Shown here: positions 34,811 to 35,577 of the stretch, piece after piece
How the letters are laid out: the number at the start of each line of letters is the position of its first letter
Position numbering within the stretch: position 1 is the stretch's first letter
From: a virus
Taxonomy: Duplodnaviria; Heunggongvirae; Uroviricota; Caudoviricetes
Reading direction: 5' to 3' (one strand)
Length of the DNA: 64,000 nt
Virus record (IMG/VR): IMGVR_UViG_3300042465_005697
Coordinates: 28,280 to 92,279 of that record
Notes under the pieces: model-generated
What the model saw: the letters and a program-made list of their open reading frames with translations, nothing else
Databases searched by the model: none
Told to the model about the DNA's origin: nothing
Made by a program: the position numbers and the translations under genes

Positions 34811-35020
34811 ATGGAAAAAAACGATATTAAAAAGTCACTATATAAACAAAATCCTAAAGCAACATTTAGGTTTATTAGAAAAGGTGTTGCTTATTACAGT
34901 ACAGAAATTCGTGAAGGTCAAACATTTCAGGTATTTTTTGAGATTCCCGTAGTTGATATGGGAGATGCCGACTTTGAAAGCACAATGGATGCAAAACTTT
35001 TAATTAGATGGATTGTTTAA
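34811..35020 (+). CDS. hypothetical small protein
   Basis: 69-aa ORF. Confidence 0.3.
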   Translation: MEKNDIKKSLYKQNPKATFRFIRKGVAYYSTEIREGQTFQVFFEIPVVDMGDADFESTMDAKLLIRWIV

Positions 35021-35043
35021 ATTAAAAAAAATTACTATATTTG
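35013..35043 (+). promoter_or_regulatory. Bacteroidota-type promoter TTG-N20-TATATTTG
   Basis: Consensus match. Confidence 0.45.
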
Positions 35044-35577
35044 TAAGACAATTAGAGAGAACCGTGAGTCCGCTGATGGAAACAACTACAGGACGATCAT
35101 ACGTCATACTCTAATTAAGACCCCACGATTGGCAGATGTATCCGACTGTCATGGTGTGTGAACCTGACTTGAAGGCTTCAAGGCTATGGGGGAGGCTACA
35201 CAGGTTAGGTAAGGATTCCCCATTATGGATAGAGGGGGTAAGGGGTCTTAAGTGATCGTAATACAATCCACAAGTTGTAAGAACACTGAACAATCTTACA
35301 ATATACGCTCACACTTCCGAGCGAGACTCACCACGTAACTTTGGGGGTAGGGTGAAGATGTTCTGAGGGCAGCACTGAACGCCGAGTAGTAAAAACCATG
35401 ACTCACTTGATTGGTAGAATAGACAAGGACGGAGTGTGAAAGTAGAAACCCACCGGGGATGGTTACTACGGGCTAGCGAATTCTAGTCATAACGGTGAGG
35501 GATATAGACGACACTAAATATAAGAAAACTAAAAGATCCTCCTGGTTTAGTGCAGGGACAATTCAGGATCTTTTTTT
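35044..35577 (+). ncRNA. candidate ~530-nt noncoding RNA (promoter-to-terminator unit, GC-richer, no ORF >60 aa on + strand)
   Basis: Bounded by promoter 35013..35043 and strong terminator 35531..35577. Confidence 0.35.
35531..35577 (+). terminator. intrinsic terminator (aagatcct...aggatctt + T7)
   Basis: 8-bp stem, 24-nt loop, TTTTTTT. Confidence 0.55.

Follow-up and report, generated by a model that had tools for sequence, protein, structure and literature searches.

The DNA analyzed here, which we call the window, is a stretch of 64,000 nucleotides (nt) of the IMG/VR virus record IMGVR_UViG_3300042465_005697, and all positions given below count from its first letter. Carrying terminase and portal genes, the window belongs to a tailed phage; ARAGORN reports 25 transfer RNAs (tRNAs) in it, and neither blastn nor megablast revealed a close relative among the 50,697 deposited phage genomes of INPHARED. 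The element in question occupies positions 35013-35577 of the plus strand and had been put forward in a preliminary description as a noncoding RNA candidate extending from a promoter to a terminator. In our analysis, it proved to be a member of a conserved family of non-coding, multi-pseudoknotted RNA genes, which are read from the plus strand and lie co-directionally within tRNA islands.

Direct reading of the sequence confirmed a predicted Bacteroidota-type promoter at 35013-35043 (+), just as had been proposed, with TTG at 35013-35015, a spacer of 20 nt, and TATATTTG at 35036-35043; it overlaps the stop codon of an upstream open reading frame (ORF) of 69 amino acids (aa), and the close relatives L003 and L005 carry an identical promoter. 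On the plus strand of the window, the pattern TTG-N17-22-TAnnTTTG occurs 15 times, with 6.6 +/- 2.7 occurrences expected. Its extended form, TAnnTTTGTAAGACAA, is found four times (30459, 32772, 33912, and 35036, all +), each time with TTTGG/TTG about 20 nt upstream, and all four copies fall within 30.4-35.1 kilobases (kb), where genes for tRNAs and other RNAs are densely packed; the motif resembles a class of phage promoters reserved for RNA genes. At the other end, AAAAGAUCCU (35531-35540) pairs with AGGAUCUUUU (35565-35574), and a run of seven T residues follows at 35571-35577, so that the hairpin and T-run described earlier are borne out, with the correction that the outer stem comprises 10 base pairs and not 8; a further 4 base pairs form an inner stem (35541-35544/35553-35556). 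With its GC-containing hairpin leading directly into a U-run, the region 35531-35577 has the makeup of a predicted intrinsic terminator. The GC content of 0.40-0.49 across 35000-35600, compared with 0.27-0.31 in the flanking coding DNA, likewise agrees with the GC-richer stretch reported before, and the folding z-score against shuffled sequences is -1.6 on the plus strand and -0.4 on the minus strand.

Searching metagenomic phage contigs, as had been suggested, recovered homologs in both IMG/VR and metagenome contigs. An exact 22-mer from the element matched nine IMG/VR viral contigs, two further motifs matched 35 and 60 viral contigs (the latter number belonging to a motif of 21 bases), and a 19-base motif matched at least 120 metagenome contigs; the 14-mer AATCCACAAGTTGT proved too unspecific as a probe, its 120 loci being mostly chance matches. 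The 21-base motif was common to all 43 viral homologs first aligned and was later present in every copy. Via nhmmer, the element was detected in 172 loci fetched from IMG/VR and metagenomes, among which 114 unique full-length copies besides that of the window (115 in total) have lengths of 412-545 nt. Each fetched locus has one copy in fixed orientation relative to the tRNAs, and nhmmer revealed no second copy within the window. The 21-base motif had no match in 185,579 species of bacteria and archaea, represented by one genome each, and blastn and megablast found no match to the element in INPHARED; all relatives detected come from viral or environmental metagenome contigs. No description of this RNA turned up in the searchable literature, although it may overlap with one of the 10,006 viral candidates in the structured-RNA catalogue PMC10690425.

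Regarding coding capacity, it had been stated that the plus strand has no ORF of more than 60 aa, and indeed the longest ORF inside the unit measures 39 aa on the plus strand and 60 aa on the minus strand, with stops in all six frames. Small ORFs, an alternative genetic code, or the degenerate remnant of an intron or mobile element would be other ways to explain the stretch, and the minus strand does show few stops, with the ORF of 60 aa in the window and, in some relatives, as many as 119 codons free of stops. That ORF, however, is open in only 7 of the 115 homologs, and the recoding of any single stop codon opens no frame in the region. The aligned regions spread evenly over the three remainders of a division of their length by three (53, 29, and 33 sequences), and the majority of indels have a length not divisible by three, as 714 pairwise indel runs leave a remainder of 1, 165 a remainder of 2, and 131 a remainder of 0. 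Substitutions preserve base pairs rather than codons, and a protein-coding gene was rejected, since no reading frame is conserved among the 115 homologs. A mobile-element or intron remnant is at odds with the lack of any intron model match at E<=10 and with the single copy per fetched locus in its fixed orientation to the tRNAs; taken together, we rate the chance of a coding region or such a remnant as negligible.

What had been described as many local hairpins resolves into 13 nested helices and four to five pseudoknots with compensatory substitutions across 43 to 115 homologs, obtained by folding the element alongside its relatives as had been recommended. RNAalifold was run on 27, 43, and 115 sequences; a plain MAFFT alignment of 43 sequences was used for the model tests, and the set of 115 for per-pair counts and mutual information. 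As the RNAalifold topologies differed where invariant G-runs and C-runs can pair in several ways, only helices with compensatory changes were kept. Controls consisted of shifting the 3' partners by one to three columns (slid models) and of 500 shuffles. The RNAalifold model of the 43 sequences has 108 pairs, with 96.0% of the cells paired compared to 36.7-45.9% in the slid models and 46 pairs changed on both sides compared to 10-23, values that none of the 500 shuffles reached. For the curated model including the pseudoknots, tested on the same alignment, 110 pairs gave 97.2% paired cells (slid, 36.7-46.4%) and 60 pairs changed on both sides (slid, 13-25); its covariation score of 0.386 compares with at most 0.101 in the controls and was attained by 0 of 500 shuffles. 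The structure is assigned to the plus strand by its frequent G-U pairs, in whose place the opposite strand would have A-C. With this covarying structure and no conserved ORF among 115 sequences, the proposal of a noncoding RNA holds.

Alignments delimit a family-wide conserved core of about 460 nt (35117-35577), beginning at AAGACCCCAC and running to the 3' hairpin, and consisting of invariant blocks, two peripheral insertion sites of variable length, and the 13 nested helices (all features of the fold are given for the plus strand). In the window, this core is preceded by an optional 5' accessory hairpin, P0 (35050-35116), with an outer stem of AAUUAGAG (35050-57) and CUCUAAUU (35109-16). P0 is present in about 30 of 107 relatives, where the same kind of promoter or a tRNA 3' end lies upstream of it; its outer stem covaries (UUAGAG/CUCUAA, GUAAAG/CUUUAC, GUGGAG/CUCCAC, AUAGAG/CUCUAU), and its inner stem changes from GUCC/GGAC to GUUU/AAAC. 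The 5' domain of the core (35117-35199) comprises the invariant AAGACCCCAC and CAAGGCUAUGGGGGAGG, a candidate loop pairing named PKa, and the helices H2 (35124-27/35157-60), H2a (35130-35/35146-51, four covarying pairs), and H3 (35163-67/35178-83), in which 92 sequences have A-U at 35167:35178 and the other 23 have G-C. It is followed by an insertion site (35200-35208) of about 12 nt in the window, which in roughly one third of the relatives holds 80-95 nt with hairpins of their own.

Downstream of this site, helix H5' (35217-21/35234-38) replaced a candidate helix H4 (AUGGGGGA/UUCCCCAU), which was dropped for showing no compensatory change, whereas the H5' pair 35220:35235 switches from C-G (81 sequences) to U-A (30 sequences). 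The hairpin H5a (35242-47/35254-59) has an invariant UUAA loop and covaries at 35246:35255 and 35247:35254, and the next helices are H6 with 9 base pairs (35274-82/35294-302), seven of them covarying, H7 (35306-10/35319-23), and H8 (35326-33/35342-48) with six covarying pairs. The loop of H8, GUAACU (35335-40), is identical in 115 of 115 sequences, closed by a non-Watson-Crick pair (35334/35341) that alternates between C.U and A.A. Helix H10 (35372-76/35433-37) displays four covarying pairs, among them 35374:35435 (A-U in 68, C-G in 29, and G-C in 12); its apical region (35377-35432) is variable and absent in about a quarter of the relatives. Six covarying pairs were found in H11 (35449-55/35493-500), whose internal loop GGAUGGUUACUA (35457-68) holds the essentially invariant GGUUAC (35461-66, a single G-to-A substitution at 35461 in one of 115 sequences), and five in H12 (35471-76/35483-88). 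In the 3' hairpin, H13/H13a (35531-40/35565-74 and 35541-44/35553-56, with the U-run at 35571-77), all ten outer and all four inner pairs covary.

Compensatory changes were also shown to back at least four predicted pseudoknots or loop-loop pairings. H5 (35226-30/35266-70) crosses H5' and thereby gives a pseudoknot in the region 35217-35270; it reads AUGUU/AACAU in the three most divergent members. In PKc (35288-91/35360-63), the H6 loop GAAC pairs with GUUC, all four pairs being canonical in 115 of 115 sequences and the pair 35289:35362 being G-C in 67 and A-U in 45; a small hairpin (35359-63/35367-71) was discarded in its favor. PKd (35478-82/35560-64) joins the H12 loop GAAUU to AAUUC in the internal loop of the 3' hairpin, with five of five pairs covarying and the lineage variants GAAUU/AAUUC, ACUUA/UAAGU, ACUCA/UGAGU, and CUCUC/GAGAG. 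PKe (35512-16/35548-52) links single-stranded CACUA to UAGUG in the apical loop of the same hairpin through four consecutive strongly covarying pairs, of which 35515:35549 is C-G in 64, U-A in 34, and G-C in 12. PKa (35174-77/35194-97) is more weakly supported, its pair 35175:35196 being G-C in 98 and U-A in 10. A first mutual-information pass was swamped by gaps shared within the insertion domains, and the calculation was therefore repeated on well-occupied columns, where the pairs of PKc, PKd, and PKe rank as high as those of the best helices. Since PKd and PKe tie both loops of the terminator-like hairpin into the fold, this predicted intrinsic terminator is at the same time an integral part of the structure. 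Finally, GUAACU (35335-40) is complementary to GGUUAC (35461-66), the six pairs being canonical in 115 of 115 sequences, a pairing beyond the reach of covariation because both blocks are essentially invariant.

In their genomic setting, the copies are closely tied to tRNA genes. Around the 113 copies examined, ARAGORN called 169 tRNAs at distances of up to 400 nt, all on the strand of the RNA. Of the 110 copies whose 3' flank was long enough, 51 have a tRNA starting no more than 15 nt from the 3' hairpin, and a further 24 have in this place a tRNA-like gene bounded by GTCAGG...CCTGAC, as at 35581-35708 of the window; a U-run follows the 3' hairpin in 95, and in 11 of the 15 without it a tRNA comes directly next. 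At the 5' side, TAnnTTTG lies just upstream in 20 copies, and a tRNA ends within 15 nt in 11. The constant strand and the hairpin and U-run standing immediately before a tRNA in many loci might be taken to indicate a cis-acting spacer or leader that controls only the termination or processing of adjacent tRNA genes. A terminator or processing signal, however, needs far less than four pseudoknots and invariant blocks in a core of about 460 nt, the downstream tRNA varies in identity (Phe, Asp, Thr, Ser, Glu, Ile, Pro) with some loci having none next, and the element in the window has its own promoter, so that we attach very little probability to this explanation. The cis-acting spacer, the coding region, and the intron remnant are thus effectively excluded.

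The direct abutment to tRNAs at either end in many relatives bears as well on the idea of a ribozyme, in which the large size, the pseudoknots, and the invariant junction nucleotides would build an active site, for example for self-processing or for the processing of the polycistronic tRNA transcripts around it. Conserved cores with variable peripheral insertions and pseudoknots do recall large ribozymes. Against this stand the covariance-model searches, which gave no match at E<=10 at the element to the RNase P models (RF00010, RF00011, and related), to group I and II intron models, or to models of small self-cleaving ribozymes; self-processing, moreover, would be superfluous where the RNA has its own promoter and terminator, and GOLLD, ROOL, and OLE look alike without catalysis being reported in the literature examined. 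We regard the ribozyme as a serious rival of rather low probability.

The wider comparison with Rfam 15 (4227 families, including transfer-messenger RNA (tmRNA), RNase P RNA, GOLLD, ROOL, OLE, and introns) assigned no family to the element at the gathering threshold and none at E<=10, either on 34000-36100 or on 35040-35585. At the element, tmRNA (RF00023) was found neither by ARAGORN nor by Rfam; the models for GOLLD (RF02032), searched on 35040-35585 and 34000-36100, and ROOL (RF03087) also gave no match at E<=10. This agrees with the preliminary description, which had seen hallmarks of neither tmRNA nor RNase P RNA and had left the RNA without a name. Because the covariance-model match fails, the RNA is not to be filed under GOLLD, ROOL, OLE, RNase P RNA, tmRNA, or introns. 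In four short homolog loci, Rfam recognized flanking tRNAs and freshwater-1 RNA only, and nothing for the element; freshwater-1 RNA (RF02979) is thus another member of these tRNA islands, scoring above threshold in L003 (3277-3338) and just below it in L022 (996-1056), which is consistent with a freshwater origin of this phage group.

When the loci of 11 relatives (144 kb) were compared with Rfam, 190 matches were obtained, nearly all of them tRNAs, with tmRNA in three. In 4 of these 11 (L003, L026, L028, and L029), a GOLLD gene follows the new RNA at a distance of 3-6 kb on the same strand, and so it does in the window, where 41960-42367 (+) matches the 3' domain of GOLLD over its full length with 321.6 bits; an ORF of 124 aa (41738-42112) overlapping it is probably spurious. 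The Rfam model of GOLLD covers its conserved 3' domain, and none exists for the 5' domain. That our element might be a split 5' half of GOLLD was considered and found unlikely, as about 820 nt without a long ORF lie directly upstream of the GOLLD match of the window. Given that the two co-occur, the new RNA is a separate gene and not a variant copy of GOLLD.

The flanks examined vary from locus to locus and revealed no protein gene shared across the relatives, with the neighboring proteins not systematically compared. The upstream ORF of 69 aa accompanies the RNA only in close relatives, and it was rejected as a partner protein because five of seven loci encoding its relatives lack the RNA. 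These observations speak against a component of a ribonucleoprotein, a decoy, or a sponge, whose invariant single-stranded blocks would bind a host factor or a phage protein; such partners could, though, be encoded at a distance. Host factors that come into question are the ribosome or 16S rRNA, a tRNA-modifying or tRNA-cleaving defense enzyme, and RNase P or E, with modulated translation or a blocked tRNA-targeting defense as the outcome. The location in tRNA islands would suit such a role, as would GUAACU and GGUUAC, which are essentially invariant in the 115 sequences, the three most divergent included, and the pull-downs in which GOLLD recovered ribosomes, cited by Kretsch et al. On the other side, Rfam detects no mimicry of a known RNA, and the possible complementarity to 16S rRNA is that of a 6-mer. 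We consider a ribonucleoprotein or decoy function improbable on balance and yet a serious rival, ahead of the ribozyme.

Further conserved features surround the element. A second unit from promoter to terminator without a long ORF (33889-34200, +) opens with TTG-N-TATCTTTGTAAGACAA from 33889, showing the same extended promoter motif, and has a hairpin and U-run near 34168-34196; the block 33873-34203 is conserved in other phage contigs, with only 7 unique full-length copies and 5 covarying pairs. Next to it, 34271-34682 (+) is GC-rich, has no ORF of more than 61 aa, and is conserved in L003, L005, L019, and others, with only 3 unique copies; it is possibly another structured RNA. The stretch 34683-34795 (+) represents an atypical tRNA-like gene with 37.3 bits in Rfam, at the E-value threshold, and no call from ARAGORN; it displays a GGTCAGG/CCTGACT acceptor stem, an anticodon loop of 9 nt, and an insertion of 40 nt in the variable region, and is conserved in L003, L005, L020, and others. 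A second element of this type, GGTCAGG...GGTTCGAGTCCTGTCCTGACTA of about 128 nt (35581-35708, +), starts 3 nt after the U-run of our RNA and has tRNA-like acceptor and T arms, with no call from either ARAGORN or Rfam. Between it and a tRNA-Asp lies an intergenic block of 210 nt (35709-35921, +), for which nhmmer gave 34 matches in the fetched loci; its 14 unique copies yield only 20 predicted pairs, and the two strands do not differ much in these counts.

Elsewhere in the window, two low-scoring Rfam tRNA matches of about 105 nt (28789-28893 and 36745-36852, +; 35-36 bits) without an ARAGORN call may be further tRNAs with insertions or introns, and the tRNA-Ile (TAT) called by ARAGORN at 16942-17028 (+), inside an ORF of 634 aa (16785-18689), is probably a false positive, as Rfam gives no support for it. 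On the minus strand, a tmRNA match (43431-43824, 49.7 bits), just above threshold and not reported by ARAGORN, abuts and overlaps a group I intron match (43234-43457, 94.7 bits); together, they may represent an intron-interrupted or an adjacent arrangement (43234-43824). An unusual auxiliary gene is found at 46745-48796 (-), encoding a protein of 683 aa that very strongly matches the phage ‘ATP-dependent protease’ family phrog_4871 with E = 1e-238.

Returning to the element, the reading we favor, with about even confidence, is that 35013-35577 (+) encodes a highly structured RNA outside Rfam 15 that works in trans, occupies the niche of GOLLD and ROOL and acts in a similar mode. In the window, such an RNA would be transcribed from its own Bacteroidota-type promoter, starting about 5-7 nt after TATATTTG, would carry the extra 5' hairpin, and would end at the hairpin and U7. 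In the tRNA-flanked relatives, RNase P would free its 3' side, and the processing of a tRNA 3' end its 5' side. By analogy to GOLLD and ROOL, the RNA might fold by itself without a dedicated phage protein, its functional entity being the three-dimensional architecture, possibly a homo-oligomer held together by the conserved loop-loop pairings, and its target during infection might be the translation and tRNA machinery that the surrounding island serves. This self-folding, possibly self-assembling reading was ranked first because GOLLD and ROOL share the niche, are similarly ornate, have no identified protein partner, and form RNA-only nanocages.

Several points weigh against it. The proposed function draws on genomic niche and style of architecture, not on homology to GOLLD or ROOL, of which there is none in sequence or structure, and since the new RNA and GOLLD occur in the same genomes, the two are not interchangeable. 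The invariant single-stranded GUAACU, GGUUAC, and CAAGGCUAUGGGGGAGG would fit a catalytic core or the site of a host factor equally well, and the covarying loop pairings are compatible with intra- and intermolecular pairing alike. The topology of the 5' domain is ambiguous with respect to the partner of the invariant 5' ACCCC and to the choice between H4 and H5'. Promoter, ends, and processing of the RNA are all predictions. A bolder version, which we put forward tentatively and think doubtful, is that of a third independent class beside GOLLD and ROOL, in which PKc, PKd, PKe, and GUAACU/GGUUAC would act as intermolecular bridges of an RNA-only assembly, or else that of a new ribozyme. Because the new RNA co-occurs with GOLLD, phages would then deploy several giant RNAs as a toolkit, and the conserved unannotated candidate RNAs at 33.9-34.7 kb and 35.7-35.9 kb point in the same direction.

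Large, intricately folded noncoding RNAs are rare and have historically proved to be either ribozymes or machines central to the cell; the few orphan classes, GOLLD, ROOL, OLE, and raiA, are under active study. A further unrelated family in the niche of GOLLD and ROOL provides a new point of comparison for the giant phage RNAs of tRNA islands. With about 460 nt, at least 115 natural variants, and a covariation-backed model, it is also a defined target for cryo-electron microscopy, chemical probing, and benchmarks of structure prediction. Our results suggest that whole islands of uncharacterized structured RNAs are present in the genomes of large phages of freshwater Bacteroidota.

Compared with known systems, the new RNA resembles RNase P RNA, tmRNA, and group I introns in size range, pseudoknots, and the tie to tRNA genes; unlike group I and II introns, it has no flanking exons but a promoter and a terminator, or else tRNA genes, at its ends. 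With OLE and the raiA motif RNAs it has in common that it is large and ornate, with highly conserved nucleotides among covarying helices. Those, however, are chromosomal bacterial RNAs, mostly of Gram-positive species, whereas the new RNA lies in a phage tRNA island, and OLE, whose model does not match it, works with dedicated proteins.

ROOL, with a length of about 580 nt, is of a similar size class, has multiple pseudoknots, and occurs in phages and prophages, often near tRNA islands. The new RNA agrees with it in being large, multi-pseudoknotted, and near tRNAs, with no associated protein gene seen in flanks whose proteins were not compared systematically. The two also differ in distribution, as ROOL is found in many bacterial prophages and the new RNA in 0 of 185,579 species genomes, all copies detected being in viral or metagenome contigs with Bacteroidota-type promoters. 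GOLLD, too, is a large noncoding RNA of phage or prophage DNA, often in tRNA islands as the new RNA is, and displays a complex covarying structure with loop-loop pairings and variable regions; the two share no sequence or covariance-model similarity, and many members of GOLLD exceed 800 nt, compared to 412-545 nt here. For GOLLD and ROOL, RNA-only nanocages have been described, in which some of the ‘tertiary’ kissing loops predicted by covariation are intermolecular bridges, one such loop of ROOL having proved to be intermolecular (PMC12286853), with the ROOL linker residues being numbered 414-464 (Kretsch et al.). Set beside these two, the RNA of our window is a new family of a known kind, namely that of the large orphan phage RNAs of tRNA islands.

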